The notes beneath the pieces are model-generated. The model was given only the letters and a program-made list of their open reading frames with translations, was not told where the DNA came from and made no database searches. Shown here in pieces: positions 6,676-53,657 of a DNA stretch of 64,000 nt. Position numbers and translations under genes: made by a program. The first letter of the stretch is position 1. Each line of letters opens with the position of its first letter. The DNA comes from Lophium mytilinum (Eukaryota), in the NCBI GenBank assembly GCA_010093605.1, contig MU004189.1:503834-567833 (forward strand), read 5' to 3'.

Positions 6676-6729
6676 GAGGTTGAGGGGGGCCTTGGGATGC
6701 GGAGAGGGTGGTCAAAGAGGCTATAGGAT

Positions 6730-8420: not shown

Positions 8421-8655
8421 AGCACGTATTCAAACACACGGACAAGTTGGTCTACTTTTGATTCTCTATTACTAGTACAGTGCAGTATCATCCAGTTTCT
8501 GCTACTGGAAAACTTCGGTGTGAAAAACACCAATTTCACACCCCAAATCGCCACCTTGGGCGCCATGCCCCCAGAATTGGGCCAATAGTTCATTCAAAAA
8601 GCAGCTAACTATGCTATGTTGAATCCATTCGCTATGCTATACAATAAGGAAAACT

Positions 8656-26895: not shown

Positions 26896-27649
26896 TCTGC
26901 TCGGACTTGGTTGAATCTCAGAGCGTCGTGATGTAGTTTTAAAGTTGTGTAAGTATGTAAATCATGTTTTCCTGAACAATATTTAGAGCCTCTGGAGCCC
27001 GGACTGTAGGTGAACTTGACCGCCAGGACTTCTGCCTAGATATCCCCTGTTTCTGCTCAATATCTCTGTAACAGTGGCTGGGTCTTCTTTATCCTCCTCA
27101 TCGCTTTTTAAGTGCTTTCTTCGAGGTAAAGGCTGATGTTATGCCCACTTTCCAAAGCTCAATTGGATCTGGCGCATACTTGCTCTCTCCTTCTCCACAG
27201 AACATTTCCCGCACTTCCGCTACCTATGATCTCAAGTCCGCATCGGCCTACTCGACGCACCCCCTCTATCTCATTGACATCTTCGGCCGCATCAGTTGTG
27301 TGAAGGGAGGAGGAGCAGTAGAAGGCCGAGGTCGGTATCTTTATTCTCCCGAAAGTAAGACTGAGCGGGGTGTTGGTGTTGTTCCAAACCCTGGCGGCCC
27401 ACCGAGCGCCCCTTTCTAGCCTCAACCCCCCCGACAGCACCCCTTTTCCCCGAGTCCCTCAGGTAATTGCTTGTCAACCCGTCACCATGGAGGCCCCTTG
27501 GTGTTGTGAATCACCTCCTGTTTTCGGCTTCATGTTGCGTATCCTGGTCGTTGAGTCGTGCGCGAAAGAGTGGTTCTGAACTCGAAAACCCGGACAGCGG
27601 CTCAACACCAACACCGGGCCTTAGTCAGCTCGCCCGCCCGGCGGCCAAC

Positions 27650-28930
27650 TCACGACGTTTCCAGCTTCGAGCACCTTTTCGCGGATAGCTCAACAACCAC
27701 ACCTCCTATCCAGAATCCGACACCGGGACGTGATTCGCACGGCCGAGTAGTATTTTTAAGGATCTTGTGCACAAGGTGAGTTGTCCATTTCATCATGTTA
27801 GAGGGGGGTATACAGGACTCTACACTTTTCTCGTCCTTCCGGCTTGCCAAGAGTTGCCAGAAGAGGAGATTCGCAACTTCATTCTGCCGTCGCCGAGAGC
27901 AAACATTTCCACGGATCTCGAGCCCGCCGCACCTTTTTGGTAGATAGCTCCACAACCACACCTCCTATCTCGAATCCGACACCGGGACGTGACTCGCACG
28001 GTCGAGTAGTATTTTTAAGGATCTTGTGCAGAAGGTAATTTATCCATTTCACTAAGTTAGAGGGGGTTATACAGGACTCCACACCTTTCTCGCCCTTCTG
28101 GCGTGCCAAGAGTTGCCAGAAGAGGAGATTCGCAACTTCGTTCTGCCGTCGCCGAGAGCAGACAATTTCCACGGTTTCGAGCCCGCCGCACCCTTTCAGC
28201 AGATAGCTCCACAACCACACCCCGGATCACAGATTTAACACCAGGAGGTGATTCGCACGGCTTGCTAGTTATTTTGAGAGGCTTTTAAGGGGTCCGTTAC
28301 CTCAACTCATTGACATGGAGGGGGGTGTACAGGACTCCACGCTTTTTGAGCTCTTCGCAGCTGCCAAGAGCTGCCTAAAGAGGTACCTAGGTCGCGATTT
28401 CGTTCTGCCGCTGCCGACAGATAGATTTTCGCGGTTTCAAGCCTCCTACACCCTTTTTTAACGTGTACCTCCTCAACCACGCCTCGCACCATAGACCTAA
28501 CAACATGGTGGCATTTACCTAGCCAAAAAGTATTTTTAAGGGTGTTTCAGAGAAGCGATTGCTCCATTTCGTTGCGTTAGAGGAGGTCCTACAGCGCTCC
28601 ACACCTCTCAAGCCCTCTCCAGCCGCCAAGAGTACCCAAAAACGAAGAAGAACCAGCGGCGGTAATACTAAAGCGCGCGCAAAGAGAATTAGCTCGGAGT
28701 TTTTTCGAGCCTTCGCACGCTTTTCTACGAATAAAGCCGAACAGCAAACGTCTCGCATCACGAATCTTGACACCAGGACGTGTTTTCACCTAGCTGAGAA
28801 GTATATTCGTGGAAGCTGCAATATCCGTGAAAATCGCCAGCTCGTTATGTTAGAGGGGGGGGTGGCGCGATGTTCCACACGTTTCTTGTTCCTCCCAGCT
28901 GCCAGGAGTTCTCACGGAAGGACTTCTATT
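27650..28930. repeat. Degenerate tandem array, ~5 units of 259-271 bp
   Basis: caccgggacgtga(t/c)tcgcacgg at 27721 and 27980, with variants at 28239, ~28501 and 28771. TATTTTTAAG-like anchor at 27751, 28010, 28270, 28531 and 28802. Near-duplicate short ORFs in the track reflect the repeat. Confidence 0.92.
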
Positions 28931-29763
28931 ACTTAGGAGGACACTCTTCGCCCGTATGCGTCTTCTGGACTCTGGAAGCAATTAGTTATATCGGCACCTC
29001 CAGGGGGGGGGTTGCATACGTATAAACATGTGTGTAGTACTTGGGCGCTTTTCCTCTATGTCCCAAGGAAAGGGTGCACGCTTTTACTAAGGCTAGTGTT
29101 TGTTATCTGCACATCTCCTTACAAAAACCATTCACGCTTCCGCGCTCTCATGTACAGAGAGGGGTATCGCGTTCCGCTCCATTTCCCTCTTAAAGGGACA
29201 CATATTTACACGTATATATAGCGATTAAAAAGACCATTCCTATCTAGATCTCGTTGGTTCTACTTGCGTTGAGTTCTTGTGGTCACACGCACATTCGTCA
29301 CGCTCAACAGCACACACACACTCTTAATACAAATTTTTCATATTCGAATACAACCACTCTCGTCCCGCTTTCGCTGCGCTCCGGCACGCCCCTCGCCACT
29401 GGCGAAAAGCGCACATGCAAGTTGCCCCATTCAAATTAACAAAGATCTTCTATGGTTATAAAAAAATGTGCTCAAAAATCCCAAACAAAAGGAGCCGTCC
29501 GTGTCATGGGGGTTAGGTGAGTGATCTGGAATATTTCCAACCGACTGAAGCCCAAAACCAATCCGGATATCGCTAACCAAAACAACAAATCCACACAAAA
29601 AGAAAGGGTTGGTCGTAACCCTGTAAGCATGTACAAAGTAAAGTTTTCTGTTGGTATTTCTCCTCTTCTCAACTCTTCTCTGTCTCGAACTTTTATACAT
29701 TCGCTACGACGAGAGGGTACAGCGCTGGCGGTACATATTAAAAGAAAAGAGAGGCGAGGTTGC

Positions 29764-32088: not shown

Positions 32089-34437
32089 GGTGAGATATGA
32101 GTCGCCTAGAGAGGCGAAAGAGTCGTTAAGGGTGCTCCCAGACCGGCGCTGGAACGGCCAAACGCGCTGAATGTGGGCGGCAAATGCAGATCGTGAGGGG
32201 GCCCGTCTGACAGAGTGGGTAGGAAAAGGTCGTAAGTTGAGCACAAAGCAAAGAAGTATTAAAGTAAGACGGTCCGGGCAGGATCAACCTTCCTCGTGCC
32301 GTAGATGAAGAGGTGTAGCAGGGAAGCAAGGATTCTCAAAGCGAGGGAAGAATGGGGGAAAGAGGTGCTGGGACGAACGAGAGGGTGAAACGAGAGAAGG
32401 CGACAAGACGTCAGGTGTTTGGAGAAAGAGTGGTGGTGGGTGTAGTGCGGTTGGAGGTTTTGATGGAGGCTTGCGAAGGGGCAGCCAGCGGTTTCAAGGG
32501 CACGCCACGGGCAGGGCCTTGGACAGGGCCTGGGCGAAGACAGGCGACGCAAGGACGGCGGCGGCGGCGACGGATTTGCTGGGGCCCTAAGGTGGCATAT
32601 GCGGGAACGTTACGCCAGAAACAGCAGTGAGTCGTAATCCGCTGCGGCAGACGAGCGCGGAAAAGCGGGTTCAGATATCGACGGGCACAGGGGAAGAGAG
32701 AGAGCAAAATGCAGTTCTGGAGGAGTCCAGCAAATCCCTTCCTCTTGTATGCATCGACGCTGGAGAGCCCTCGGCGAGCACTCCGCCCCGGCCACCACCG
32801 CTACTGCATACAAAGACATCGGCCTCCTCAGCTGGCGCCCGCGCTGGCAGCTGGACGATACGACCTTCACAGCCTGCGCAGGATGGGCCAAGCAGAGCCT
32901 TTGACGGCCAAGCACGCTGCTGCACGCCCGAGAGGGAGCTGTCAAAGAAACCATGCCCGTTCCATGCACATGCACGCGCGAAGCTGAGCAGCTGGCCGGC
33001 CTCTGCCCGACTTGCTACTGCTATTTTGAACGGTAAGCACATGGGCGCATCGTGAAGGCGGATCTGGCCTCTCTGCTCGTGTATGTAGGTTGATATGTTA
33101 CCCTGAAGCCCGGCGTGCCGCTGACACAGCGTGCGGCGGTTGCATGGCAGGTGGTACCTCCAGCTTGGGCCGCTGTGGTCCAGTGGCTCGTCTTCGGCGT
33201 GGCTGTGTATGTCTATTTATGGCCGCCAGTACCCACAGAATCTTTGCCGGTTCCTGGGGATCTTCCAATAGTGGGAAAACTGCGTCGCTGGAGGCCCTAT
33301 CGATCCTGACCAGTCCGCTCTGGGATAGCACATCTGGATGGGGATGTTAGGAGGTGACGTCTGCATTCCTTTTCGTTCAACAGAGAATCATCGAGGACCT
33401 CGAGACAGATCAGATGGACCCAGACTGTCTCGAAAGCCACTTGAGGAATGGACTGGAATAAACAAACAATGAGTAGACGAACCTGACCACCCAAGACATG
33501 ACAAGCATTTCTGGTGCGGGCCTCTAATGCTAAGACATCAACACCAAGACCGCAAGACAATTAGCCGGCGACACTCAAACGCCGTAACTGGCTGCCTTTG
33601 TTGACTACTTACGGCCTCAGATCTAGACAGAGGTCCGACACAACGTGATCAGCTCGGTCGGTTCCCCAGGATTAGAAGGAACCCACTTCTATATCGGCAA
33701 TCATCAACCTTAACCCAAAATTAAGGGGAGTGGGTGGACGAAGCTTGAAGTGGAAGGAGCGGCGGTGCTTGATGGCGCTTACCTAAGGTCAATCCAGCTT
33801 GTCAGATCCACCCAAGATACCATCTGTATGGTAGAGTACTGCTTGAGGTGCCTTCAAGGGAACTCGAGGGTCCAGATTAGATGTAGGTTCCATCCCGGCA
33901 ATATTCAGCCCAGCTTACAGGCTTTTGACGGGCCAGTTGCCCAGTTGAGCCACTACAGAAGGTATGGTTATGAGAGACAAGGAGAATCTATTTTCTAAAC
34001 CTCAAAATCAAGGGCACCGTGCTCGCATCGTGATAACGTGATGAATATATTTAGAGGTTATTTAGTGAGCAATCGACGACTGCATCATATCTGCTCTTGA
34101 TCAGACGCTCGTAAGTATTTCGTTTGATCTCGCCGAAAGTCACTAGACCACTTCATCGCCAAATGATATGGCTTCCAAACTTTCGAAAGGCTTTCCTATT
34201 TTCGCTTGTAGCAAGGGCTACTTTGAGGCACCTGCCTCGGCATGTCTATCTTGATGCTCTTGCTCAGTGCCAGTCTTCGTTACGGCACACCTTCCCTTTC
34301 CTTTCTCCTGTCATGTTGCTTCCTCTGCCGGTTCGCTTTGACCCCTCAGTGGCATTCCCATCGCTTCTCCCATCCGTCATCCATCACATCACCTCAGCAT
34401 TGTTATCATCAATTCTGATCCTCGACTCAAGACTGCT

Positions 34438-37048
34438 ATGGGTGCTATGGGACGTTTCGCACGTAGAAAGAGGAAGACCATGGCCAGAATCCGGGCCCTT
34501 CTTCGAGCGAGAGCCTCCGCCAACGCTCCGCCCCAAGGAGGATTGGATGGAGAGTCAGAGCCGCCTGCCACAGCGCCTCAACTTCCGCGACCTAGCCCGC
34601 GTCCCAAGCTGCCGGGCAAACTACATGCTAGCAAGTCAACACCTGGTTTGTCAAGACAGATCAGCCACAAGCTGTCGGCTTTCTTTCAGAGCCCTACTGT
34701 CGTGTACCGTCCGACATCACGTCTACAACCATCAACAGTGGCTTCAGTTGTGGAAGAGGTTCACACCCAATCAAACTCTTCTAGTCTTCTTTTGAGCATT
34801 CAGCCACCCGACCCACCATTGAGCACCCCCGTCGATCAGAACGATCCTTCCCCATCATCCTATCAGTCAAGCGTCAACAGCAGCAATCTCCTGAAAAGCG
34901 TCCAGTCAACAGCACCAACCTCACTATTCTCTTCGGGTGCTCTTAGGTCTGCCGAAACGATATACATCAAAAGCCGCAACCAAGATGGAGACGGAAACGG
35001 GCCTCCAGGGATCCCCGAATACGTCATTGACCAAGTGATACCCCAATCCCGTTGGTGTGCCTTTCCTAGGCAAGACGCACCTCGTGTCGTTCAACCCTCT
35101 ATCCGTACAGTCGAGAACGCTGCTGCCGCCAAAATCTTCCTCGAAAATCACTTTAATGGGCTGTTTAACCAGAGGATAAACCCACGTTCCCTCAGGCGCC
35201 GAAATCTCGAACGAACGCTCTTCAATTTGACTGTTCCAAACGAGGAGAGGAACCAAAAGCGACAAGAATGGTACCGCGGCGAAAGTGAGCACCTTCGCCA
35301 GACACGAGTGCTGAAGTCTAGGACTATGGCGAGAAAGAATATGAAGGGATTACACATCACAGGTTACGAGATCGTCCGGATATTGGGCAAAGGTAGCTTT
35401 GGTGTTGTGAGGCTAGTCCGCGAAAGAGGAGACAGTACCAGCGACCACCAACGTATTGAGACGCTGGACGGTCAAATGGCCCGAGCTATGCCCAATGATA
35501 CGTTGGTCAAAGATTTTACGCGAACCTGCAAACAGGTGTACGCCATGAAAGTCATCAGGAAGTCTGATATGCTTCGAAACAGTCAGGAAGGGCACCTACG
35601 CGCTGAACGAGATTTCCTCGTAGCCTCGGAGAACTCGCGCTGGGTTGTGCCGCTCATTGCCAGCTTCCAGGATAACAATAACCTCTACCTCGTTATGGAG
35701 TACATGGTCGGCGGGGACTTTTTGGGTCTTTTACTTAGAGAAGACGTTTTGGACGAGGGTATTGCACAGTGGTATATTGCCGAGATGATATGTTGCGTAG
35801 AGGAGGCACACCGCATGAATTGGATCCATCGCGATGTCAAGCCTGACAACTTTCTCATAACGGCATCTGGTCACCTAAAAATATCTGATTTCGGACTGGC
35901 GTTCGACGGACATTGGGCGCACAATCAAAGCTACTACAACGAACAACGATACTCTCTCATGCGAGATCTCAATATCAATGTTAGAGGTGATTCTCAGGAT
36001 TGCGAAGAGGAGATGGAAAAGAACAACGCACAGCGGGTGGCAGACATCATCAACGGCAACCCTCTAGACTGCAAAAGATCCACTGGGAAGCCGCAATCAG
36101 AGATCAACGGACCTGTTTTGGATTGGTTGAATCGGACGCAGAGGCGTAGCTTTGCAAAGAGTGTTGTCGGCACTAGCCAGTACATGGCACCTGAAGTCAT
36201 CCGAGGAGAGACGTATGACGGGCGGTGCGATTGGTGGAGCATTGGCATCATTCTCTACGAGGTACGTGTCGACAACGCTTTACATGCTACGATTCTAACA
36301 AGATCCTTCAGTGTCTATACGGCTGCACCCCCTTCTTCTCCGAAAACAGAACCGCAACAAAAGAACGAATTCTCGTAAGCTTCGCACTATTCATCTGAAT
36401 CAACCACTCTAACCCCTTCCCCAGCGCCACAAACAAGTCCTCAAATTCCCCTCCGACTTCCGCTACGCGCGCCCCTCCACCGACCGCGTCCCCCTACGCC
36501 CCGTCTCCCGCTCCGGCATCGATCTCATCTCGCGCCTCCTCGACGAAAAAGAGGTCCGCCTCTCCGCACGCCGCTACCGCGACAACGACTTCGCCATCGC
36601 CCGCCGCACCCTCTCCTCCCGCTACCTACGCAACTCGCACCTCCACTCGCCCGGTCACTTCGTCTTCGCCAACGACGCCGAAGACATCAAGGTCCACCCC
36701 TTCTTCCGCGGCATCGACTGGCAGAATATGCACCGCGCGCAGCCGCCGTTCGTGCCGCGGGTTAAGGCAGATCAACCGATCACGAAGTATTTTGACGACG
36801 AGGCGGACATTATGAGCGAGAGTGATCATTTGGATTCAAGTAGTTATGCGAGTGGGGCGGTGGAGAAGGAGGAGGGAGATGGGAAGATGGGGGGCAAGGG
36901 GAGGCGCAGGCGGAAGGAGAAAAAGAGGCCAAGGGATAAGATACTTAGGGATCCGGAGGTCGGGAGGGCGGTGTTGGAGATTAGGAAGAAGGGCGCGTTT
37001 GTGGGGTATACGTATCGGAGGCCGAGGTTTGCAATGCCGGAGTGTTGA
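34438..37048 (+). CDS. AGC-group NDR/Cbk1-related Ser/Thr kinase
   Basis: GKGSFG, YAMK, HRDVKPDN, DFG, long activation-segment insert, VGTSQYMAPE and C-terminal AFVGYTYRR. Introns 36262-36311 and 36375-36424. Confidence 0.9.
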
Positions 37049-37899
37049 GATGATGGTTCCTGTGGGAGAGAAGGTGATGGATGAGAGGAGAGGGCTGTCG
37101 GTGATGCTCTTGCTGTCTTTCTTTTGTGTGGAGTGTTATTCTTAGTTTCCAGGCTTGCTTTGGGTCTGTAGTCAAAATCCCTTTGATGTTCGAGCTACTT
37201 GAATGTGGTGCTACGTGGGTTGTCTTTTGACTTACACTCGCTGCTGCTCGGGGCACCTCGACATGGCATGTGTACCCGGACCTGATGTTAAGCTCCTAAG
37301 CCTAAGGTTCAGACGAGTTGGTGAGGTTCTTGATACGAGGCGGATCCCAGGCCCATCTATGCGACTCGCCTCCATTACACCTCGATCCTGACTCCGAGTC
37401 CCATCCCTTGAAAAACTCTCATATTGTACGAAGTCATCCTCAGCCTCATGATCCATCCCCTACAGACGTCTACTACTCATTAAAACTCGCACTCCTGTCA
37501 GCACGCCTTAGCAAATCACCACCTAGATCAGCGTCCAGAGCAAACGAGAGCCACTTATGTTGATCACACCCAGGGCCTCTTAGAGCAGAGGAGAGGTGGG
37601 AGTAGCGCATTCGATAAGTATACCTGACCACTAATCTCATAACGGGAAGTAGACCTTTGGCGAATCGTTCAAGACTCTCTCCTCAAATCAATAGTCCTAA
37701 CCTTCACGTCTCATGTAGAGTTGGAAAAGCGTATGGGGATGGATACCTGTGACAGTGACTGAGGAGTCCGCACAGGTTATCGTAATCGCGTTGTGGAACA
37801 ACAAAGTCGAAGAGTGGAGGGACTCATCTTCACTGAGATGAGAAGAGCTTCGTCTCCACCACGATTAGAAGAAGCTCGTTTATCTCTGATGCGATGAGA

Positions 37900-40253
37900 T
37901 ATAGACCACCTCCTATGTTATTTGATACTCGTCATCACCACATCAATTGCTGAAGCCGCACCACCACCACGCCCATGGGACACAAGACACAGTTATGACA
38001 ACCAACCGATCGAGTGGTGTTGTTGTTCCTTTGACCCCCCCTCTCCCACTCCACGTGCGAAGTATTTATATGCGATTTTGAAGACCCCACCTCCTTTTCT
38101 CCCCCCCCATAGCTCCGCGGTCATGCTTTTTTTGCACTCCATCCACCATGAGACTGTAGAGTGTTGCATTCGATCCACCGCCCCATTACGTCGTAATGTT
38201 TTCCATATCTAATCTTCAGCTATCGCATATTGTAGTAGTACCAGTTCTTTTTGACTGACCTCCCCTGCCTCCCCACATTAGGAGCTTGCTTGCGAATTTT
38301 CGATATTCCACTACCATGAGCATCGAATATACTCTGATCGATCCCGCCACGTTCAGTTGGGATCTGGTGGATGTTTGATCCCCATCAGTTGTTAGTGTAA
38401 GATCTTTTGATCCGCCTCCCTTGGCTTTCCAAACGCATCATTTCGCTATTGAGTTTTCGAGACTCCATCAACATGCGCCTTTGGAATGGTCTGTTTGATC
38501 CACCGGCCCATTTTGGCGTGAAGTTTCGCGTTTCTGATCCCCAGACACCACCCATAAGCGATTACCCGAGGAGCTGTTGACCGACCTCCCCTCCACTCCA
38601 CATGCATCACTCCGACTGTCAAGTTTTCGATACTCCACCAGCATACCGCTGTTGACGGGTTTTGTTCGGCCACTGCTCCATTGTCCCGTGATGTAGTGAG
38701 TCTCTGATCCCCAGCCACCACCCATTTTCAGCAGCGCTAAAATTCTTTTGATAGACCTACCCTCCTTCTCCACATATCACATTTCGCTGTCAAGTTTTCG
38801 AGACTTCAACAGCGTGCCGCCGTCGAAGTGCTTTGTCTGATCCACCTCCACATATTGACGTAGTGCTGAAGTTTCGTTTCTGATTCCCAGCCACCACCCA
38901 TCGACTCATGGCAGAGAGCTTTTGACGGACGTCCCCGCCTCTCCACATGTAGGGTATCGAGTTCGTAGTATTCAATCCACCACCCTATTCCTGCTTGACC
39001 ATCTGGTTTCTGATCCCCAACCACCACCACATGAGGGGTTTGCGTCGTGTCTTTCTACCCGCCTCTCCCCCTTCTCCCATGTAGCGGGGGCATTGGGCCT
39101 ATTTCACAAGTCCAGCACCATGTATGGCTTGGTCTCCGATTCTGAACTACTGCCCCATGAGAGAGCCTTTTCTCGATTCTTGATCCCTAGACACAACCCC
39201 TTTAGATGCCATGTCTTACGATGTTTATGACCCGCCCCTCCCCTTCTCCACATGACTTGAAGCATCGGGCGCATTTTGCAAGCCCAGCACCATAGAGGGC
39301 CTGGTCTTCGATTTTGAAGCACCAGTCCATGCCGTTGTTCCTTCCAGGTTCTGAAACCACCACATATTGACGTGTGCTTCGAACTTTTCGATTCACCTCG
39401 TCCCCTTTCTCCTCGTGCATCGAAACATCGGGCGAATTTTACAACCCCAACACCATCAGACCAATGATGATCGTTTTTTAACCACCAGCCCGTAGCAGAC
39501 TGCTGGTGTAGGTTTTTGATGCACAAACACCACACCATGAGATCTCTCATTCGAAGATTTTGATCCTCCCCTCCCCCTTTCACATGGGCTGGACCGTGTG
39601 GTTGTTTTTGTAAGCCCAGCACCATTCGAAGCACTAAATCTGCTCTTTTGAACCACCAGCCCCATGAATAGAGTGTGTCCAAGTTTTGAATACCCAGGCA
39701 CCCACCCCATGGAGTCTGTTTTGGATCTCGTTTTGATCCACCACTCTCCCTTCTCCCATTCTTCATAGTGATCGAGCGGATTTTACAAGCCCAGCACCCA
39801 TCAAAATAATACTGACGCGATGTTTTTGAACCACCAGCCCGTAACAGGCTGATGTGTAGGGTTTTGATCCACAAATACCACCCCATGAGACTCCTCCCGA
39901 AATTCCTGTTCTAATCCACCACCTCCCTCCCCACATTCCTATGTATGTTCGGAAGTTTTTGGGAGCCCACCACCATTGCTCCACGGCTGTTTCAATTCCG
40001 ATCCTCCGCCCCATCGACCATCCCATCTCGCATTTTTGATCGATGCTTTCGATCCCACCCCTCCCCTCCCACATATTGTGTTTTGTGCACCAGTTTTGCA
40101 AGCCCAGCACCATGGGGCTAAGGATGGTGAATTGTCGATCCACCGGCCCATGCCAGTAGGTGATTTGTTTTTTCGATCCCCAAACACCCACCCCATGAGA
40201 TTGTGATAGTGCCGAATTTTTGATCCACACTTCTCTCTCCCCTCCCTTCCCAT
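37900..40253. repeat. Interspaced higher-order array: four conserved block types (TTTTGA...CCAT) with variable ~18-21 nt spacers, ~170 bp unit, ~13 units
   Basis: Identical TTTTGCAAGCCCAGCACCAT at 39274 and 40094. TTTTGAACCACCAGCCC at 39646 and 39824. TCTGATCCCCAG(A/C)CACCACCCAT at 38533 and 38703. AGTTTTCGA at 38452, 38622 and 38793. Confidence 0.9.
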
Positions 40254-40319
40254 GAAAAAAAGAAAAGCAGGAACGAGGGCGGCAGGAGAGATTCTTATAC
40301 CGGACCTACCCCTCTGTTG

Positions 40320-40510
40320 CCAAGCCGCACGTGAGACATAGGAGAGACGTGGCCGGTAACACGGCATCAGCTACGGTGGTGGAACCACGTGGGAGGTGTG
40401 TGGTACGACAGAAGCGGTGTGCGAGATGACGTAGCGGCACCGGGTAATCAGAGAGCGGGGTGGAGTGGAGTATGATATCTTACGCACGCTGATAACTGAC
40501 GTGGCTCACT
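40320..40510. promoter_or_regulatory. Cluster of ACGT-core (E-box/CRE-like) motifs next to the array
   Basis: CACGTG at 40328 and 40386, GACGTGG at 40346, TGACGT at 40427 and 40497. Function is inferred. Confidence 0.4.
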
Positions 40511-41419
40511 TCAACCTTGTGCCTGAAGGGGATTTCAGATAGCCACGACCAATAGACGCACCTACAATTTCCAGTACCGCATCCAAAAGCTATAGTAAAT
40601 GGAAAATTGAGGGGTAGTAAGGAAGGCGAATGTGGGATGATGACAGATTATGAAGTTTGAAGTTATTTGATTTGATATGATGGCGTTGAATATCTACTCG
40701 AAGCAAGTTTCGTACAAGCCCTACGAAGAGTGAGTCGCGTGGCTATTAAGCACAAGAACATCTCTGCTCTCTTCTTCTCCTCCTTCCCCCCCAGCCAATC
40801 TGTCACTGAATGTCCAGAAGTGGCAACTGACTATCGAACAAGACACAAAAGGAAGAAGTATGACCGCCCCGGCTGCCAACGGTCCGCCCCAATAGGAGCA
40901 GAACCCAACAACCAGCGGCAGGAAAAGTATAAACAACGAAGAAGTAAGATGTCGAAAGACTTTTTTGACACAAATGCGTCTAATCCAGCAAGTTATAAAA
41001 AAAAAAATGAATGAAGATGTGCGGCTCTCGCCCCCAAAAAGGCCGGCCGGTAAAAACAGGGTTGTCGAGAAATGGTAAAACCGTGGGTCGTATTTCATCG
41101 TTAAGGTAAGGTGGTTGGTGGGTCCAGTCCAGAATCCCCGCCACGTGGGAAAGCGTAGTATAGGTGCACCAACCCGCCCGCCGTCTCCGCTACCCGCTAA
41201 AGACGACGGATTCCGTGGTTCGCCCCCGCGCCGATAGAATGGTAGTGGGCGGCGTAGTGCAGGTAAATGTAGTTCCGTGGTCGTAACGCGTCCAGCAGGC
41301 CCATTAGCGCTGGAGCCGCAATCGCCCTGCCTCCTTCCTCTGTCGCTCTCTTCCTCTCTCTCGTCGTCCCGCCCCGGGCCTCAGACTCGCTCTTCGCTGA
41401 GGGTGGAGTGGTGGTTCCA

Positions 41420-41792
41420 TCACCGCACTGCTCTACCTGTGCCCATGCGTGATAGCTCTTTGATGCCGACCATCGGGCTCTTGCTCATCCGCCGACTCGC
41501 GCGGCTCGCGGTCGAGTTGTTGGTCGAGCTCGACTTTGAGCTCGTGGGGCTCGAGGCGTAGATGTACTCGCCGTCGACGTACTGGGCTTCGCTGATGAAG
41601 GTGGTGCGCTTCTCGCGGCGGGTGTAGCGCTGCTCGAGGCGGTAGAGCTCGAGTTCTGTTCGAGATGGGTCAGCGTGAAGATTTTCAGGGAGGCAAGGAA
41701 TGCGTGATCAAGTCGAGGGGGGTGGGTAGTGTGATTCGAGTAATTGAGGAGAGGGGAGGCGTACTGGCTTGTAGCTTCTCGAATAGACCCAT
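41420..41792 (-). CDS. Small 87-aa basic protein of unknown function (two exons, absent from the ORF track)
   Basis: Exon 41792-41765, intron GTACGC...CTGAC...ACAG at 41764-41656, exon 41655-41420. Gives MGLFEKLQAKLELYRLEQRYTRREKRTTFISEAQYVDGEYIY...; strong C-ending codon bias. Confidence 0.8.
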
Positions 41793-42639
41793 AATGGAGT
41801 TGTGTTAAGTGTCGAGGACGTGATGGAGGGTCAGAGGTCGTCGGGATATGCTGCTGACAGATTGACAGGCGATAAGATTGTTAATCTCGAGAGAGGTGTT
41901 TGCTTTTCCGAGGGGGCAGAACAAATGAATGGTGCAGTCGGGGTCGCAATTGGCGTTTCGTCGGTGAGTCTAGGAAGCTCTTGGCCGCAAATGAGGGTGC
42001 TCGGGGTAGACTGCAGGATAAAGAGCGCAATGGGTGAGAAAGTGTCGAGCAGAAGGCGGGTTGGACGGCTGGCGTGGAGGTCGCGAGGGCGCTCATAGGG
42101 GCCCCGGCGGCGGGCTTCTTAGCGGAATAGCACGCTTCTGGAAGGCCAAAGCTGGTGCCGACAGCCCATCCTGCAGCAAACGAGTCGCCGTTCCGCCAGG
42201 GGTTCATGCAGCAAACACGTCGATGCCGCCACTGGACCGGTCCAGCTCTTGCGCCTTGCATCTTGGGCCTGGCTTGTTCGGCATCTCCTGCCGCGCACTC
42301 TTCATGCCGTGGCCACTGTCACCCTTCACGGCCTCTTGTTCCTGCGCAGTATCGAGCAGTCAGCAGCAGCCGGGCCTGCCACGCCCTGAATCTCGGGCGG
42401 GACCCGAAGCAAGCGTCCCGCAACGTGGACTTGAGCTTAACGAGTCAGGCCCGGCATCCCGGGGGTTGGTTTGGCTAGCTCTTCGAGGCCTGTTCGCCGC
42501 GTGAGTTTGCGCCATCACGAACTCCATGCGAGCCCTGGTCGACGATAGCTACCCACTCTCCACACTGCCGTCGCCCTGGGACCACCTTATCGCCCTGACA
42601 CACGCCTATCACTGCCCACTGCATCGACGGACAGGAGCC

Positions 42640-42885: not shown

Positions 42886-45800
42886 TCATAGTCGCGACTC
42901 CGGCACAGTTCCTTCAACTACGGCCACAGCGCCTACATTGCCCGCGTCAGCAGAGCCATTGAGCAGCGAAATGACAGAAATGACATCGGACGGCTCGAGG
43001 AGGTGCCAGCTGGCGAGCGTCTGCTTGGAGCTGGCGCCCACTGTCACCGAGAAGACGTGATCTGTAGGCAGCTTGGAATGCCGTAGCGAGCGGAACATAT
43101 CTGCCCTTGTTAGCATTCCTGATTTGCACAAGAGGACTACATCTCAATGCTCACCTTCGTCCGTGAAGTCGTCACCAAGACAGAGCACAAACTCTGGAGC
43201 CTGTCCGGGCTGGTCGCCATATGACTCAACCAATCTCTTCGCAATCTCGCCCTTGTTGACGAACCGCGGCCGCACTTCGAGGTTGGCCTTGCCCTCCATC
43301 ACTTCAACGTCGAACTTCTTGGCGACCGTGCTGTTGAGGAGCTTCTGGCATTCGCGTGCCTGGTACACTCCATACTCGGGGTCTGCTCGACGATAGTGCC
43401 AAGTGAGCGCAATCTTCTTCCGTTCGATGAAGGATCCTGGCTTGTTAGACAGCGCACATATCAATTAGACAATGGTCATACCTTGAGTCCGCTCCGTGTA
43501 GTGCTGGAAGACACTCATCACCTCCGACTGCCAGCTCATATCTTCTTTCTCCGTAAGATTCGCCCATTCCTCGCTTCTTGGATACCGCATGAAGCTCCCA
43601 TGCTCGGCACTGAAGCCAAGCTCTGAGATATGACCCATCCACTCGTCCAAGAACGCCTGGTCTCGCCCACTAATAATCCACACCGCATTCGCCGGATCCG
43701 AAGCAAGTGTCTTGAGCGTACGAAGCACGCGGTCTGATGGAATTGCCGCCTGCGGGTCTTTGACAATCGGAGTGAGAGTGCCATCGTAGTCGAACATGAA
43801 TACTCGCTTCTTTGCTTGCCGGTATTGGTACAGCAGCTTGGCCCGGTCCAGCGCTGGTGTCGCGAAAGACTGGTCGAATGAAGACAAGTTTGTCATAAGC
43901 CGCTTCAGGAAGTTGTTGGTCCAGTTCTGTACGTTGTTTGTGACAACGTGCTTGTAAAGTTTTTCTTGATGGTCCTTCCGAACGTCCATGGGCATCGTAA
44001 GAGCTTCGTTGATTGCCTCGGCCACTCCACCTAAATCCCAAGGGTTGATATGAATAGCATTCCCCAGGCTGCCAGCCGTGCCCGAAAACTCAGAGAGGAT
44101 CAATGGACCGTTATTTGCTTTTTGGCAGATGACGTATTCCAGACTGGTAGTGTTCATCCCGTCTCTAACACTGGTAATAAGACCCACATCTGCGACTCGG
44201 AGTAGCGCGAAGTACTCCTCCCGCGACAGATATTGGGGGAAGTGCTGAACCGGTGCGAAACTCAGCGAGCCATAAGTACCATTGATCCTGGCCACCAGGT
44301 CTGCGATTTTGTTGACGAATCTGTTGTCCGCATCCTCTTGATCCTCTTGGAGATGGCTAGGGCTTGTGACCTGGATCAACACGACCTTGTCGTGCCACTC
44401 TGGATATCTCTCGAGGAACATCTCAAATGCTTGGAGCTTTTGTGCAACACCTCTGACCGAATCAAGGCGATCCCGCCCCACTATGATCTTCTTTCCCGCA
44501 TAGAGCTCGCGGATCCCTTTGATCTTTTCCTCAATGAGTGGATCTCCAAAGGCCTGTCGCTGAGTAGAAGCCGCCGCGATTCCAATGGGGAAAACGTCTA
44601 CAGCAACATGAGCACCGTATGCATCAACGCCTGCCGACGATGAATCAAACCCGAGAATTCTTGTACAGCATGAAGAAAAGTGACGAGAGTAGCTGTATGA
44701 CTGGAAACCAATCATGTTTGCACCGAGAACACCTTCTAAGATCTCCTTTCTTCGGCTGAGGCAACGGTAGAACTCGCTACTCGGAAATGGTACATGAAGG
44801 AAGAACCCAATGTACACACTGGGAAGGCGCTGGCGGAGGAGACTGGGCAAAAGTAGTAGGTAATAGTCATGAATGACTATGATGTCTCCTGGCTTGTAGA
44901 TTTCCAGGATCCTATCCGCGAAGAGCTTGTTCATGCGGTAGTAGTCTGCCCAATATCGCCGTACAGCTCGGCCATCCGAAGGCTCGTTCTGTTTGTAGTG
45001 GAAAAGCGTGTAGAGCTCATGCTCTGCGTAACGACGCCACTTGGACTGGTCTTTGATGATGGCCACATCTTGGTCTGCGTCAATTCCATCTGTCAGCCAC
45101 ACTGGAACGATTCTGCCTCCATGGTCACGCTCTAGTTGTCGCTCCAAGCGTTTCCGGTCTTCACGGCCGACTCTCAGTCCCTCATACGCTGCGGGCTGTG
45201 GCGGTTTGGAAGAGCCGTCGACGGGAATTGGAGCAGATGCTTTATTCGTTTGCGTAGCGACTGGGGGAGGATTTGTGGATGAAGATGTTGCTGGTCGCGC
45301 TCCTGCACGTTCTTCGATTTCTCCAGTCCACCCTACCATTGTGTGGTTCCATGGCGATGAAGATGAAGCCAGATAGGATAGCGAGTCGAACAACGCCGAG
45401 GTCCCTCGCCTTGCTTTCAGTTCCTATTACCAGTTAGCCCACTCTCGAAACGAGTAGCGGCGTTCGCTGAGCGATCTCAGAAGACTGTTACAACTATGCC
45501 GTCGTTGATGGCAGTCAGATGTTTCCGCCCACACCATTTTTTCTTCAACTTACCCAGTCATGGCCCGGAGAGTATCCAATTTGATATGGCACACAGAAAG
45601 TTGCGGAGATGACCCCTCCACTGAGATTCAAGCCAGGGTGAGCAGCCCTGGGATCTACATCTGCGAGGTCGGGCTTCCCAACTGTATCTCCAATGAGGCT
45701 GAGCCGGCGCAACAGATCCTCTCCACTCCTAGCTCCAGCCGCCGCTTCGGTCGGAGAATCGGGTCTAGGTCCATCTTTGGGGGCGAAATAGGAATTTGCA

Positions 45801-47048: not shown

Positions 47049-49546
47049 ATGCATAGAGCTCGCCACACAGCGGTTTGCACTGCCCAGAATGCCTTCAAGC
47101 CTTCAATTGTCCTCTGGCAGCAGTTCGTTGCTGCTGGAACCCCTAACCAGCTTCAGCGTTTCTCCTCCACCATAGCTACACACGACCCCGAACAGCCTCT
47201 ACCTCAACCGCCATCGCACGAAACATCCGAAGAGCCTTCCTCGCCAGTCATCTCCGACCAAGCCGATCAGTCTCCAGCAGAGTTGCCGCCGAAGAAACAC
47301 GCCTATCCTCGAGAGAGCATTGCTGCTGCCAACGAGCGCCAAATCGACGACATAGACCCTCATGACCTGTCCGCCACGCTTGAAGCGCATCGCGCCTCGA
47401 ATCGGGCATCCCTTCTCCGCGGTGTCCAGAGCAGTCAGCGTGGAACGTATTTCAAACAAACCAAAGTACGGTCGCCGCTGAGTTTGGTTGTCAATGTTGA
47501 GAAAGAGCCTGGAGAAATGCCTCTGATACGGCACGTGGTACCGGAAAAGCCTAGGATCCCCACCGTCGTAAGCCTTCAAGGCATTGCACTTAAGAGACAA
47601 TACCCTAGACCGCCTGTGACTGAAGACGATCCCATTACCTTTCCTCGCCAAACAGTTTTTCGAGCGGCGGCGGCGCCAATGTCCAGGCAGGTCAAGAAAC
47701 CTAAGAAAGCTGTCACCGAGTCCCAAAACGATCAAAATCTCGACGATGGGCCCCCAATCGATCTGATGCTAAGACAAGACGGGTCCAAGGCGAAACTGAA
47801 GGAGCTCAAGAGTAAATCCAGGAAGGAGTCGACGCCGAAGAAATGGCCAACCATAGCAACCTTCAAACAAGGCCAACAGCTTCTGGAATATAAAGGGGAA
47901 AATGTTGTACCACTTACTGACCTGGTTGTCCCTGAGAACGAACTTCCTTGGACTGTCAAGGAGGGGTTACAGTCGATGACGGGGGCTGAGAGGTCAGCTA
48001 TACCCACGGAAACCTTGTGGAAGCCACGCTAACTTCCTGAATTAGACTTTCGGAGGAAATATCAAGGTTTAATTCGTACATGATGCCAACACCGAACGAG
48101 CACATCGCGCGGCAAGCCGTGATTAAGGAGCTTTCTGATCTAGTCAAGCAGACTTTTCCCAAGCATACAGTGAGCGTGTTTGGATCCGAGTGGAACGGGT
48201 TGGCATTAGCCACATCAGACATCGACCTTCGACTCTCAGTGCCTACATTGGTCGGCTCAAAACTAGAAAAAGCACCACGTTACGTTATACGGAAAACCCT
48301 GCTGAAGGACCTTACTGAATTTCACTTGGTCATGCAGAAAGCGGGCATGTACATGCTCTGCTCAATTAGGCATGCCCGTTATCCCCTCATCACCGTACAA
48401 CACATCAAGTCGCGGCTAGATCTTCAAGTGGTGGGATCAAACGACACTTCAGTATCCCGGGCGTACATCCTCAAATACCTAGCAGAGTATCCCGGCCTGA
48501 AGGAACTCGTTGCTGTTCTGAAGGTGCTATTCGACATTCGAGGCCTCTCCGACGTTTTCAGGGGCGGCCTGGGCTCCTACAGCGTCTTCATGATGGCTGT
48601 TGCCAGCATCAAATTAAATCCAGAGATCCCCATCCCCGATCTCGGGCAGCGCCTCCTCTCGTTCTTAAATTTCTGGGCCAAGTTCGATACGTACTCCCTC
48701 GGAGTCTCTATCGAGCCAGCCGAGGTATTCCCTAAGAGGTCCAAAACTTTCATCACCGTTAAGCAGAAGAAGAACCTGGATGAGGTAAATATGACCACTT
48801 TCGCGTTCTAGTCACGATTGATTGACATCCTCTAGAAGGGTCTATATAGAGAGAAAATGGGCCAGATCGACCCCGCCCAACCATATCTCCTGTGCTTGCA
48901 AGACCCCGCCGATGCCACAAACGACGTCGGCAAGAAGGGCTTCGCCATCAAGCACATCCAAGCCACGTTCGCGCACTTGGAGAAAGAGCTCAGGCAATCT
49001 ATGCAGGAGAACACCAGACCGTCGCTACTGGCTCCTCTTGTGGGTCCTGCCTACATCCTGAACAGAGAACGACGTGCTGTCATGGAGGAGTACGGAGCGT
49101 CGGTCGGCCCACTACCGGAGCTGGCAGTTGAGGAGACGCAGCAGGCGCCACCGGCGGAGATGACGATCGAGGAGTTTAGGGAAGAGTTCCCGCTTCCCAA
49201 CAGCCCTCCTGTGCAACTTTCTCTGGACGAGGTGGTCGGGATTGTGAGGGAGTTCAAGGATGAGCCGGAGGAAGTTGGAGTAGCTTCTCAGGATGCGACA
49301 GAGGAGATTGTGCAAGAGGGTCAAGATGTGGTAGAAGTGATCGAGAAAGAGGCTTCAGACGCGGCGGAGCAGGTCGAGCCAGGTGCTCAGGATGCGAATG
49401 AGCTGATTGCGGAAAAAAACCAGGAAGTGGTAGAGCAGGAAGCTGAGAGTGCTTCCGAAGTGATCGAGCAAGCTGAAGAGATCACACCGAAAGAGGAAGA
49501 TGTAGGAGAGAAACAGGGCGAAGCTTCTCAGGACAAGACGGCATAG
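47049..49546 (+). CDS. Non-canonical poly(A) polymerase / Trf4-Cid-like nucleotidyltransferase with presequence-like N-terminus
   Basis: FGSEWNGLALATSDIDL, GGLGSYS and LCLQDPADATNDVG. Introns 47993-48045 and 48785-48835; acidic tail. Confidence 0.82.
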
Positions 49547-50398
49547 TCATCCACGGACGAGAGTCTATCTACGCTCACCCGATAACGGCAGAGGACGGTT
49601 TCGGATATACTCTGTATCATGGCAAGCGGCAGCAGCGTTGTTATATTTGGGGACGAGTGTACAGATAAAATTCCAGGGAATGTATTTGTATGTGTTGTTG
49701 ATGTTGGCGCTGTTCTCTGGGACTTCTTCTGACTCGTTCGTGTACACCTCGGCTGGAGGTCTGCTAACATTCTAAAGCTCTTTGTCAATCGCTTTCCGCG
49801 TCACAGACCCTGGGGCGTTCGTAGACGGGCAATACGAAGTCTTCATCGGAACCTCGCCTGAGGCAACATCGATAGGGCTGAGCTGGGTGACGCGACCTCT
49901 CCTGGCAAAGAAAAACATCACAAACATTCGAAACCATAAAGACTGAAGAATCTAGTCATATAGTCACTCACGAATATCACAAGAACACGCTTCTGATACC
50001 ATGATAAGCTAATCTAAATGCAGATTTCATCCTTAGCACTCCCGTGTAGTAGGAAAAACCCGGATATGCATCGTGGAAAGCCGCAGAAACCCGGTAAGGA
50101 AAGAGCCATCTTCCGGTTGTAGACTTTCGGGTCTACAGCGAAAGAAGGGGGGGTAATAACAGTGGGAAGGCCGTGATAGATGTGTGTGGGGGGAGAGTCG
50201 TGGGGAGTCGGGATAAGGAAACACCAAGCCGATTAACGCTGAGCCCATCTCCATGCCACTTGAACGCAATCAGAAAACAAGCCTCGTCCACCCCCGCCGC
50301 AGAGTTTTGCCCCATGTAGTAATTTAGCTGGATGGGGTCCGTCAAAGTCGTTTTTGTAGAGCCCGACTGTTATCATGCTGTGGATTCGCTTTGTAGGG

Positions 50399-51249
<851 letters not shown>

Positions 51250-52223
51250 TTTGCGAGTGTGTTTTCGGGGGTGTGGATCGGGAAAGAGGGAGTGGTTTTG
51301 CAAGAGGAAGTCTGCTGTGACGGAGAACTGAAGTGGGCTGCGTCTATCAGGTTAGCGCCATGAAAGCAGGCGGGGCGTATCGCTGGCAGGCCAGCACTAA
51401 TAACATACCTGGTCAGCGTCGGGCGGTGTTGGACTGATGTTGTGGGTGAAAGGCCGCGAAGGAAGTCGGGAGTGAGGGAAGAAGGGTTTCGAGGCAGCCG
51501 GCGACGTTTTATGGGTTGGTTGGCCCCAGGCTGAGACCCGGTGCACTTCTTCAGCAGAATTCACCGCTCACGCGTGGCAAACGATAGAACCCCGTCGTTC
51601 TCGCAACCACCTTCTACCATCGACGACGTCTGCCAGTAATACCACCAATATATTGCATATCAACCCTCCGCGTTGACAAAGCAACGAGATGTACCTATTG
51701 AGCTCCTTCACCAACTGCGTCTCGATTAGGGTTCGGGGCGGAAGGGGCCGTCTGCAAGCAGCAAGCTGTGCACTCCCCGCGAGGTGTGCTCTGAAACGTA
51801 GGACAGCAGCCTCCACGTCTCGCTCGATACAGCCGGTAGTCCTGCATTTGAGGCCTAGCATTGCTAGTTATTTGGAGGCTGAGGGTGCTTGGCGTGCATG
51901 AGTATGCTTCTATCACATATGTAGGCTTGAGTGCTGCACCGTCTGGGTCCTCAATCACGAAAGTGCTCACCCATACAGTACTTCACATTGCATAAACATC
52001 CAGAAGGTTCTTAGCGTTTCTATCTAATGTACGAAAGGTGCTCCTGCTTTTGTCGTATGTCTATGTCATCGCACGGAGTTATCTCCTGTGGTTGATTAAT
52101 TGCATACGACTACCCCATACTTTCCGGCACAGTTTTTGCGTGCCAAGAAGCGTGCATCTACAAACCCTCGATATATTTACAGCTATTGTTTCTTGTCAAG
52201 ATATCCATCGATCGATGCATGCA

Positions 52224-53657
52224 CTAGCAGAAGGCTTGAATGCCAGTGATGGCTCTTCCGAGAATGAGAGCTGCGTGACTAGGTCAGTAGTGGCCAACAT
52301 CATGCAGCCTGCCCGAGACTTACCGTGAATGTCGCTCTGTCCCTCGTACGTCTGGGTCACAAACAGATTCGCAACGTGTCGGCCTATTCCGTACTCGTCA
52401 CTGACAGCATTGCCGCCGAATACCTCTTGCAGTCTGCATGAAAGTTAGCGCATGAGCGTGCAGCCTGTCGTGACAACTCACATTCTCGCGTTGACCAACG
52501 CCCTATCACAGTTCTGTCGCTTGATCATCGAGATCATTTCCGGGGCCGCTTTGCCTTCGTCCTTGAGTCTGCCAACTTGGGTCGCTGCAAGTATACCGTA
52601 TGCAGCATCAGTAGTGGCGTCTGCAAGTTTCTTCTGCACAAGCTGGTACTTTGCGATTGGATTGCCCTTGAACTGTTTGCGATTCAGAGCATAGTCTCTT
52701 GTCCTTGAGATGCTGTCTTCAAGCGCGCCCATCGTTCCCCATGCAATTCCGTATCTCGCGTTGTTCAGGCAGCTGAATGGACCCCTCAGGCCCTCAACCT
52801 CAGGGAACATGTTCTCTTCCGGAACAGGACACTCATCTAGTTGGATCATGCCAGTTATGGATGCCCTCAGACCATTCTTGTTCTTTATTGGTGGCGTCTC
52901 CAGAGTGCCTGGTGGACACTGACTCCTCTCGATCACGAAGCCGCGGATCTTCCCGGTACTCTCGAGCTTGGCCCACACAAGGAACAGATCGGAGATGGGA
53001 GAGTTGGTGATCCATGTTTTGGCTCCAGAAAGTGAGTAGTATCCCTTCTTGGACGGGTGTGGCTTTGCGACTGTCTCCATCGATCCAGGATCCGATCCGT
53101 GATTTGGTTCTGTCAACCCGAAGCAGCCTAGCATTTTCCCCTTTGCCATCTCGGGCAAGTATTTGTCCTTCAGTTCCTGGGTGCCATGCTCCTCGATTCC
53201 GCCCATTACCAGGGAGCTCTGTACCGAGTATCCGGATCGGTAACCCGAGTCCACTCTCTCCACAGCTCGTGTGATCAAACCAGAAGCCACACTGCTCACG
53301 CCGGCGCATCCGTATCCCTGTATTGTTGCACCAAGAAGTCCGAGCTCTCCCATTTCCTCGAGGATCTTTCGATCGAAGTCTTCATTTCGGTATGCGTCTG
53401 CAATATTGTTAGCTGAGTGCTTCAGGACCTGAGGCTGGGGTCATGATACCTAGAAGCCTGGGCAGCATGCGTTCCTGACAATACGCTTCGGCAGTCTCCG
53501 CAATTGCCAGCTCATCTTCCGTAAACAGGTTGTTCGCCCCAAGGGGATCTTTCCAGTCAAACGCTGCTGGAGTATGAGCATATCGCCTTCCAACGACTGC
53601 AGAACCAGTAGGTCTAGTCAATTGGCGGACAGCCTGCCTGCAGACTGGCTTGAACAT
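52224..53657 (-). CDS. Glutaryl-CoA dehydrogenase, mitochondrial
   Basis: [59 protein letters not shown]. Confidence 0.92.

Follow-up and report, generated by a model that had tools for sequence, protein, structure and literature searches.

A transcribed, satellite-like tandem array with four conserved boxes per unit between convergent genes of the fungus Lophium mytilinum

Satellite DNAs such as alpha satellite with its CENP-B box and the Meloidogyne satellites with a conserved 17-bp box are built of head-to-tail units of about 170 bp with higher-order structure; an excerpt of PMC9673304 gives the satellite boxes as kept at about 88%, with the rest of the unit 36–74% alike, and short euchromatic arrays near genes, as well as transcription, have been described for satellites (PMC10048060, PMC5909420). 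Conserved cores with variable spacers in a transcribed tandem repeat are also found in Xist Repeat A, where, according to a section of bioRxiv 10.1101/2025.05.21.655143, it is the cores that recruit proteins and so carry the function, rather than the spacers. In CRISPR and TIGR-Tas loci, repeat-like blocks alternate with variable spacers of roughly constant length. Degenerate minisatellites dispersed to several loci are carried by transposable elements, for example Helitrons, whose minisatellite remodelling is described in a portion of bioRxiv 10.64898/2026.08.08.743475. Here, we analysed 64,000 nucleotides of Lophium mytilinum (assembly GCA_010093605.1, contig MU004189.1, positions 503,834 to 567,833 of the forward strand; hereafter the window, whose own numbering is used throughout), in which a model-made first-pass annotation had noticed a repeat-spacer array recalling CRISPR and TIGR arrays. 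We found that the array lies between two genes, spans 2.3 kb at 37958–40253 and consists of 14 head-to-tail units, each about 170 bp long. It is a satellite-like higher-order tandem repeat specific to its lineage and is transcribed, and uniform decay does not account for the contrast between its conserved boxes and its divergent spacers. No description of such a fungal array was found in searches of one open-access literature collection.

Units, modules and boxes of the array

The self-identity of 37900–40259 was highest at lags of 170–173 (0.319–0.328, against a mean of 0.261 and a standard deviation of 0.017 over lags 1–719), and neither flank gave a peak at these lags in the same scan. Tandem Repeats Finder did not report the array because it is too degenerate. 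Units were defined by cutting at the starts of box A (n = 14, 37958–40253) and then aligned. The profile made from this alignment matched all 14 units within 37954–40255 (E 7.7e-34 to 1.3e-13) and had no further match in the rest of the window. A sensitive blastn search of the array against the rest of the window returned a single 21-nt match (E 0.31), and two box words occurred five times each, every time within the array, against expectations of 0.19 and 0.29. In a repeat search of the array, families recurred at a spacing of 163–176 bp.

Each unit carries four related modules, and each module consists of a pyrimidine-rich box (A, B, C or D; 20–30 nt) and a spacer of 17–21 nt; the array holds about 52 boxes. 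The base composition was C 41%, T 29%, A 21% and G 9% in boxes, and G 30%, T 29%, A 21% and C 20% in spacers. The elements are as follows:

37958–40253, minus strand (inferred from an RNA contig joined to a minus-strand spliced gene): tandem array of 14 units of 137–176 bp (modal 172) with four modules each, from self-identity, profile and alignment
38130–38959, minus strand: left subfamily of 5 units with the box A variant TTTTCGAKACTCCAYCARCAT, from repeat families and alignment
39102–40253, minus strand: right subfamily of 7 units with the box A variant TTTTGCAAGCCCAGCACCAT and a two-unit super-period of about 340 bp, from repeat families
Box A: median 20 nt
Box B: median 20 nt
Box C: median 26 nt
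Box D: median 29 nt
Spacer 1: median 17 nt
Spacer 2: median 18 nt
Spacer 3: median 19 nt
Spacer 4: median 20 nt

By our reading of the alignment, boxes of every type start with a T-run followed by GA and end with (C)CAT, and CCCAG.CACCA is common to boxes A and C; the four modules therefore look descended from one module of about 43 bp. In the RNA (minus-strand) sense, a box begins with ATGG, continues with a G/T-rich stretch and ends with GATCAAAA.

The 14-unit alignment and the profile bear out the first-pass description of four cycling box types, about 50 boxes and spacers of about 19 nt. The extent proposed there, 37900–40253, is right at its right end and too long on the left, where the first, weak unit starts near 37958. 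Box A is, as had been noticed, 100% identical at 39274–39293 and 40094–40113, two copies 820 bp apart with unrelated flanks. A unit without box A (at 38960) and one with a truncated box C (at 39957) are seen in the alignment where such losses had been noted, and both pairs of related same-position spacers that had been pointed out were recovered in the repeat families.

Many best-matching copies lie about 325–348 bp apart, which gives a two-unit super-period. Units nested in a super-period are what unequal crossing-over yields in satellites. Two features of satellites and minisatellites, a stable head-to-tail period and a nested higher-order periodicity, are present in this array.

Unequal conservation of boxes and spacers

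We found that pairwise identity per alignment column was 0.7–0.9 in boxes and 0.2–0.3 in spacers. Boxes were more alike than spacers in all 91 unit pairs, the box mean being 0.656 (0.305 by chance) and the spacer mean 0.332 (0.258 by chance). Conserved columns were clustered along the unit (lag-1 autocorrelation 0.48), which none of 2000 permutations reached. For comparison, 14-unit arrays were grown in simulations by duplication and left to decay uniformly with indels to a matched mean identity of 0.48–0.53; not one of 120 such runs reached the observed clustering (largest value 0.34), and their column spread was at most 0.20, against 0.235 in the array. Clustering in 40 earlier, over-diverged runs (mean identity 0.35) was at most 0.21. 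Uniform divergence of boxes and spacers, which the first-pass annotation had named as the mark of an ordinary decaying satellite, is therefore rejected for this array. The transition/transversion ratio was 1.12 in boxes and 0.59 in spacers, indicating that spacer changes are near saturation and that the boxes are not saturated. Two younger arrays of the same window, described below, showed weaker clustering of 0.21 and 0.26, so the box contrast is not simply a property of the method. Repeat-induced point mutation (RIP) was considered as a cause and discarded, as the TpA/ApT ratio of 0.45, the (CpA+TpG)/(ApC+GpT) ratio of 1.36 and the G+C content of 0.50 do not fit it; TpA is depleted in the array compared with the whole window, where TpA/ApT is 0.70.

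The spacers retain traces of common descent. Spacers at the same position of the unit were slightly more similar than spacers at different positions (0.405 vs 0.386, Mann-Whitney p 2.6e-4), and their likeness fell along the array from 0.44 at 1–2 units apart to 0.385 at 5–6 units, with equal likeness at two units and at one. This pattern indicates growth by tandem duplication and drift and not independent acquisition of spacers. Together with the rejection of uniform decay, it upholds the earlier proposal of tandem duplication followed by unequal constraint. The companion proposal, that the length of the spacers is also under selection, was not supported: 39 of the 56 spacers lie within 1 nt of the median length, and neutral simulations matched this regularity in 852–1904 of 2000 runs when indels made up 3–5% of events, the regularity being rare only when indels made up at least 8%.

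Transcription, relatives and possible function

Contigs of sequencing runs were compared with the window over 35500–42500. Runs X1 and X2 are DNA runs identical to the window, probably from the source strain. Run X3 was taken as RNA, since its contigs carry three GT..AG joints, two in a kinase gene to the left of the array and one (41655/41765, minus strand) in a small gene to the right. The features that bear on transcription are as follows:

34342–37048, plus strand: protein kinase gene converging on the array from the left, with two GT..AG introns in an RNA contig (Pfam Pkinase, 4.3e-42)
38063–38108, minus strand: end of the X3 RNA contig at 38107 within a G8 run (38108–38101), then the poly(A)-signal-like TATAAATA (38070–38063); the next contigs have depth 4–6 with gaps
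40254–40700, minus strand: non-repeat stretch upstream of the array with promoter-like words, through which the X3 contig runs
41420–41792, minus strand: small spliced gene of 87 codons, with exon 1 at 41792–41765, a GT..AG intron at 41764–41656, exon 2 at 41655–41423 and the stop at 41422–41420; the joint 41655/41765 is present in X3 and X4
42889–45423, minus strand: gene of the trehalose-phosphate synthase/phosphatase family, upstream of the small gene on the same strand (Glyco_transf_20, 7.2e-148; Trehalose_PPase, 2.3e-38)

A single X3 contig (5867 nt, mean depth 576) covers 38107–41655 and continues past the minus-strand intron to beyond 42500, with no difference from the window and no splice joint within the array. 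The kinase contig of the same run has a depth of 9.6, and the non-repeat stretch 37181–38106 is covered by X3 fragments only, at depth 4–6 and with holes. The array is thus transcribed, as had been put forward as a check, and the region, correctly placed between genes by the first-pass annotation, is not a silent one. Because the RNA contig is continuous with a minus-strand spliced gene, the likeliest sense is minus, and the array RNA is probably G-rich. Minus-strand windows folded somewhat better than their shuffles, with a mean z-score of -0.90 over 34 windows; the plus strand averaged -0.16 and the flanks about 0. Run X4 comes from a close relative (roughly 90–95% identical, from its contig figures); it covers only 40709–42042 and is uninformative on the array.

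On the minus strand, TATAAGA stands at 40299–40293, 46 nt before the first box, and CACGTG occurs twice (40328, 40386), TGACGT twice (40427, 40497) and CCAAT once (40549) further upstream. Given these words, 40254–40700 may be a promoter, although such words could arise by chance. The promoter-like and poly(A)-like layout would fit a separate RNA of about 2.2 kb.

Given these results, the reading that we favour, tentatively and with less than even confidence, is that the boxes of this transcribed, lineage-specific, satellite-like repeat are kept as multivalent binding sites, most probably on RNA from the minus strand. The four-module unit of about 172 bp looks derived from an ancestral module of about 43 bp (T-run, GA, C-rich box, CAT and about 18 nt); copying of this unit gave the 14 units and their two-unit super-period. 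The array would be read on the minus strand, either as a separate non-coding RNA (about 2.2 kb) or within a greatly extended 3′ end of the small upstream gene. The roughly 52 boxes, G-rich in the RNA sense (AUGG...GGAUCAAAA), would be held by purifying selection as repeated docking sites for a sequence-specific factor, the RNA may act as a multivalent scaffold or sponge, and the spacers would be linkers only, drifting freely, an arrangement comparable to the cores and dispensable spacers of Xist Repeat A. We also consider a bolder form of this idea, which is unlikely: that a filamentous ascomycete turned a young satellite into a non-coding RNA of about 2.2 kb, driven by a promoter of its own, whose roughly 52 G-rich boxes together gather or titrate an RNA-binding protein, as a fungal counterpart of Xist Repeat A or NORAD, and that sister copies elsewhere, the multi-copy relative described below among them, form a small RNA family.

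Several observations weigh against binding sites. Relatives of the small gene, found in metagenomes with exon 2 as the query, are present at 51 loci, and the unit profile had no match at any of them, so the conservation in relatives that had been looked for did not appear. Likeness at the DNA level is limited to 41553–41653, in 46 of the 51 loci, at 68–92% identity. The absence of the array from these loci indicates that it is lineage-specific and, together with the narrow stretch of DNA likeness, that any function would be young or narrow. No base pairs emerged when 13 minus-strand units were folded to a consensus, and hairpins of a box with an adjacent spacer were not consistently favoured in any of 16 combinations of box, side and strand (mean z -0.52 to +0.59). 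Selection on spacer length was set aside, as neutral drift reaches the observed regularity if indels are rare. The strand, level and ends of the array RNA are inferred from contigs for each of which depth is a single mean and which may span several transcripts. The three arrays within 64 kb, all in gaps between convergent genes, fit plain tolerance of junk DNA. Finally, one piece of the array has a multi-copy relative, which fits a selfish or satellite family:

38748–38814, strand unassigned: piece with box D, spacer 4 and box A, matched by a multi-copy contig from elsewhere in the genome, with 7 mismatches and 2 gaps

The DNA depth of this relative was 602 and 1568, against 160 and 140 for single-copy sequence (4–11 times), and it is also present in the RNA run, in a contig of 2915 nt at depth 654. 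It is closer to 38748–38814 than the array units are to each other, and by eye the loose ends of the match continue to resemble the adjoining spacers; the family therefore probably exists elsewhere in the genome, spacers included. Overall, the data suggest that the boxes may be binding sites.

Many of these observations are what would be expected if the array were an ordinary decaying satellite or minisatellite without function and its RNA read-through from a highly expressed neighbour, an explanation that is the main rival and that we hold to be somewhat unlikely. In that case, the boxes would owe their conservation to the low mutability of C-rich, G-poor tracts, to slippage keeping the T- and C-runs, or to gene conversion over short tracts. 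The nested higher-order structure is typical of satellites, two more degenerate arrays lie in convergent gaps of the same window, a multi-copy relative exists elsewhere, relatives of the locus show no conservation of the array, spacer length is compatible with neutrality, and the RNA contig is continuous with the upstream genes. Moreover, uneven variability along monomers is common, and an excerpt of PMC9673304 assigns a function to one such conserved region only, the CENP-B box. However, none of the 120 uniform-decay simulations reached the clustering of the array, clustering is far weaker in the younger arrays, and there is no RIP signature. Upkeep of low-complexity tracts also fails as the cause, because complex, non-repetitive words such as GCAAGCCCAGCACCAT are kept, up to 100% at a distance of 820 bp with unrelated flanks.

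Gene neighbourhood, reading frames and known systems

The array is flanked by two convergent genes, the plus-strand kinase and the minus-strand small gene. The small gene has no Pfam family. Its trehalose neighbour is kept upstream at 8 of the metagenome loci, and one locus (L002) has a different gene downstream. A period-178 signal in L002 and L003 was rejected as an array, as it lies within a coding region, by eye a transporter-like gene. The stretch 41553–41653 in exon 2 (minus strand), about 100 nt that code for the N-terminal part of the 87-codon protein, has diverged much less than its surroundings or the remainder of the gene. Scanned against Pfam, 26 frames of the window gave kinase, trehalose-phosphate synthase, SNF5, PHD, CorA, TRP channel and similar families, the others being without a family; no Cas-like, Nop-like, nuclease-effector or transposase family was among them.

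Two further arrays of the window lie in similar surroundings. The one at about 6700–8450 is a younger degenerate array with periods of about 230 and 160–161 bp, pairs 81–88% identical and the recurring word ACGTTACAT, between a convergent endonuclease/exonuclease/phosphatase family gene and a PHD-finger gene; with a TpA/ApT of 0.99, it is borderline by RIP-type indices. The other, at about 27250–29000, is younger too, has a period of 259 bp with copies 66–90% identical and decaying along the array, and lies between a convergent Mtf2-family gene and a TRP-channel gene. The unit-profile search showed that neither shares boxes with the array at 37958–40253. No periodicity was flagged in a further convergent gap, the 2.9 kb at 49546–52478 that separate a Cid1-like nucleotidyltransferase gene from an acyl-CoA dehydrogenase gene. 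From a reading of the open reading frame (ORF) lists, tandem arrays occupy 3 of 5 convergent gaps and none of 12 other gaps (Fisher p about 0.015, computed by hand). Convergent gaps either tolerate junk DNA or the arrays act there.

If the arrays act there, the boxes could work at the DNA level, as an array of protein-binding sites between convergent genes that serves as a terminator, roadblock, insulator or chromatin organiser and keeps transcription units apart. We consider this distinctly unlikely. It would agree with the placement in convergent gaps, with the drop of RNA depth to 4–6 just beyond the array, with a unit of about 172 bp near the nucleosome-repeat length (part of PMC8122249 describes most satellite units as nucleosomal in length), and with the clustered G-runs of the minus strand, where 20 two-tetrad G-quadruplex motifs were found against an expected 9.6 ± 2.6. 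However, there is only one canonical G3 quadruplex motif in the array, boxes of 20–30 nt are long for single-factor sites and none is palindromic, the module lengths (about 37, 39, 45 and 49 bp) are off the helical repeat, the other two arrays have different boxes, and the box words are absent from the other gene gaps.

The minus strand of the array is also unusually poor in stop codons: its three frames hold 49, whereas 500 dinucleotide shuffles gave 93 ± 6.5. It carries overlapping Trp/Gly-rich ORFs of 268, 180 and 143 aa, the longest being equalled in length in 2 of the 500 shuffles. Spacers alone contained 22 minus-strand stop words against an expected 34.5 (p 0.016), with plus-strand stops as expected (42 vs 47.7), and every box starts with ATG on the minus strand. 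These figures would suit a relic or cryptic form of a repetitive Trp/Gly-rich coding sequence, which is nevertheless very unlikely. None of the frames stays open across the whole array. The modal unit length, 172 nt, is not divisible by 3, a single ORF reads copies of one box in different frames, and the RNA contig is unspliced inside the array. The 69 ATG-started frames, considered as mini-ORFs, were rejected, having no common length, end or design. No Pfam family was matched by three frames of the array, and the 268-aa frame, searched against 5.8 billion proteins (lengths 147–469 aa), hit only itself. The stop deficit is in large part due to TpA avoidance and to the inheritance of four stop-free boxes in 14 copies, with a remainder unexplained.

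Known RNA classes were sought as well. Rfam (E up to 1) had no match in the array and two sub-threshold matches outside it, at 37558–37778, and ARAGORN found no tRNA gene. A weak inverted repeat of 24 nt (71% complementary; 37668–37691 and 40667–40690), at chance level by word statistics, brackets the array and the promoter-like stretch, and its right arm is close to where the X4 RNA contigs stop matching (40709). As to marks of a transposable element, no target-site duplication was seen by eye at this pair, and no transposase was found in the scanned frames.

The first-pass annotation had also raised the release of small guide-like RNAs, the boxes of a CRISPR- or TIGR-like array serving as processing signals for spacer-derived small RNAs. 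All that recommends this is the transcription of the array and the way in which repeat-like boxes alternate with variable spacers of about 19 nt, and we regard it as extremely improbable. There are four box types with a mean identity of 66% and no single near-identical repeat, the spacers are related by descent and appear to recur in the multi-copy relative, the RNA is one long colinear contig of more than 3.5 kb, no hairpins were found at the boxes, no spacer target was found in the window, and the host is a eukaryote with spliced genes. The scanned frames held no effector-like gene, in line with the remark that none was visible nearby.

If the boxes are real binding sites, the array would be a repeat-built regulatory RNA or DNA element that arose from a satellite in a compact fungal genome, and would illustrate cleanly, in a natural case, how selection holds cores while linkers drift. 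If they have no function, a strong contrast between boxes and spacers can still arise in a satellite, and tandem arrays gather in the convergent gene gaps of this fungus. The CRISPR-like reading can be dropped in both cases.

Compared with the systems named at the outset, the array resembles CRISPR and TIGR-Tas loci in layout; those systems are prokaryotic or viral and have one near-identical repeat, foreign or independent spacers and an adjacent effector gene, none of which applies here. With the minisatellites carried by transposable elements it shares dispersal of a kind, a multi-copy relative of one unit, whereas the scanned frames hold no transposase or element gene and the only bracket is the weak inverted repeat. 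In Xist Repeat A, which is conserved across mammals, a single GC-rich core recurs about 8 times between U-rich spacers, whereas the fungal array combines four types of box, about 52 boxes in all, with spacers of mixed composition, and has no conservation beyond its lineage and no shown binder. The satellites with a conserved box share its unit length and higher-order structure; compared with them, the fungal array is only 2.3 kb long, has no centromere link or known binding protein, lies in a gene-dense region, carries four boxes per unit instead of one, and has spacers near saturation.

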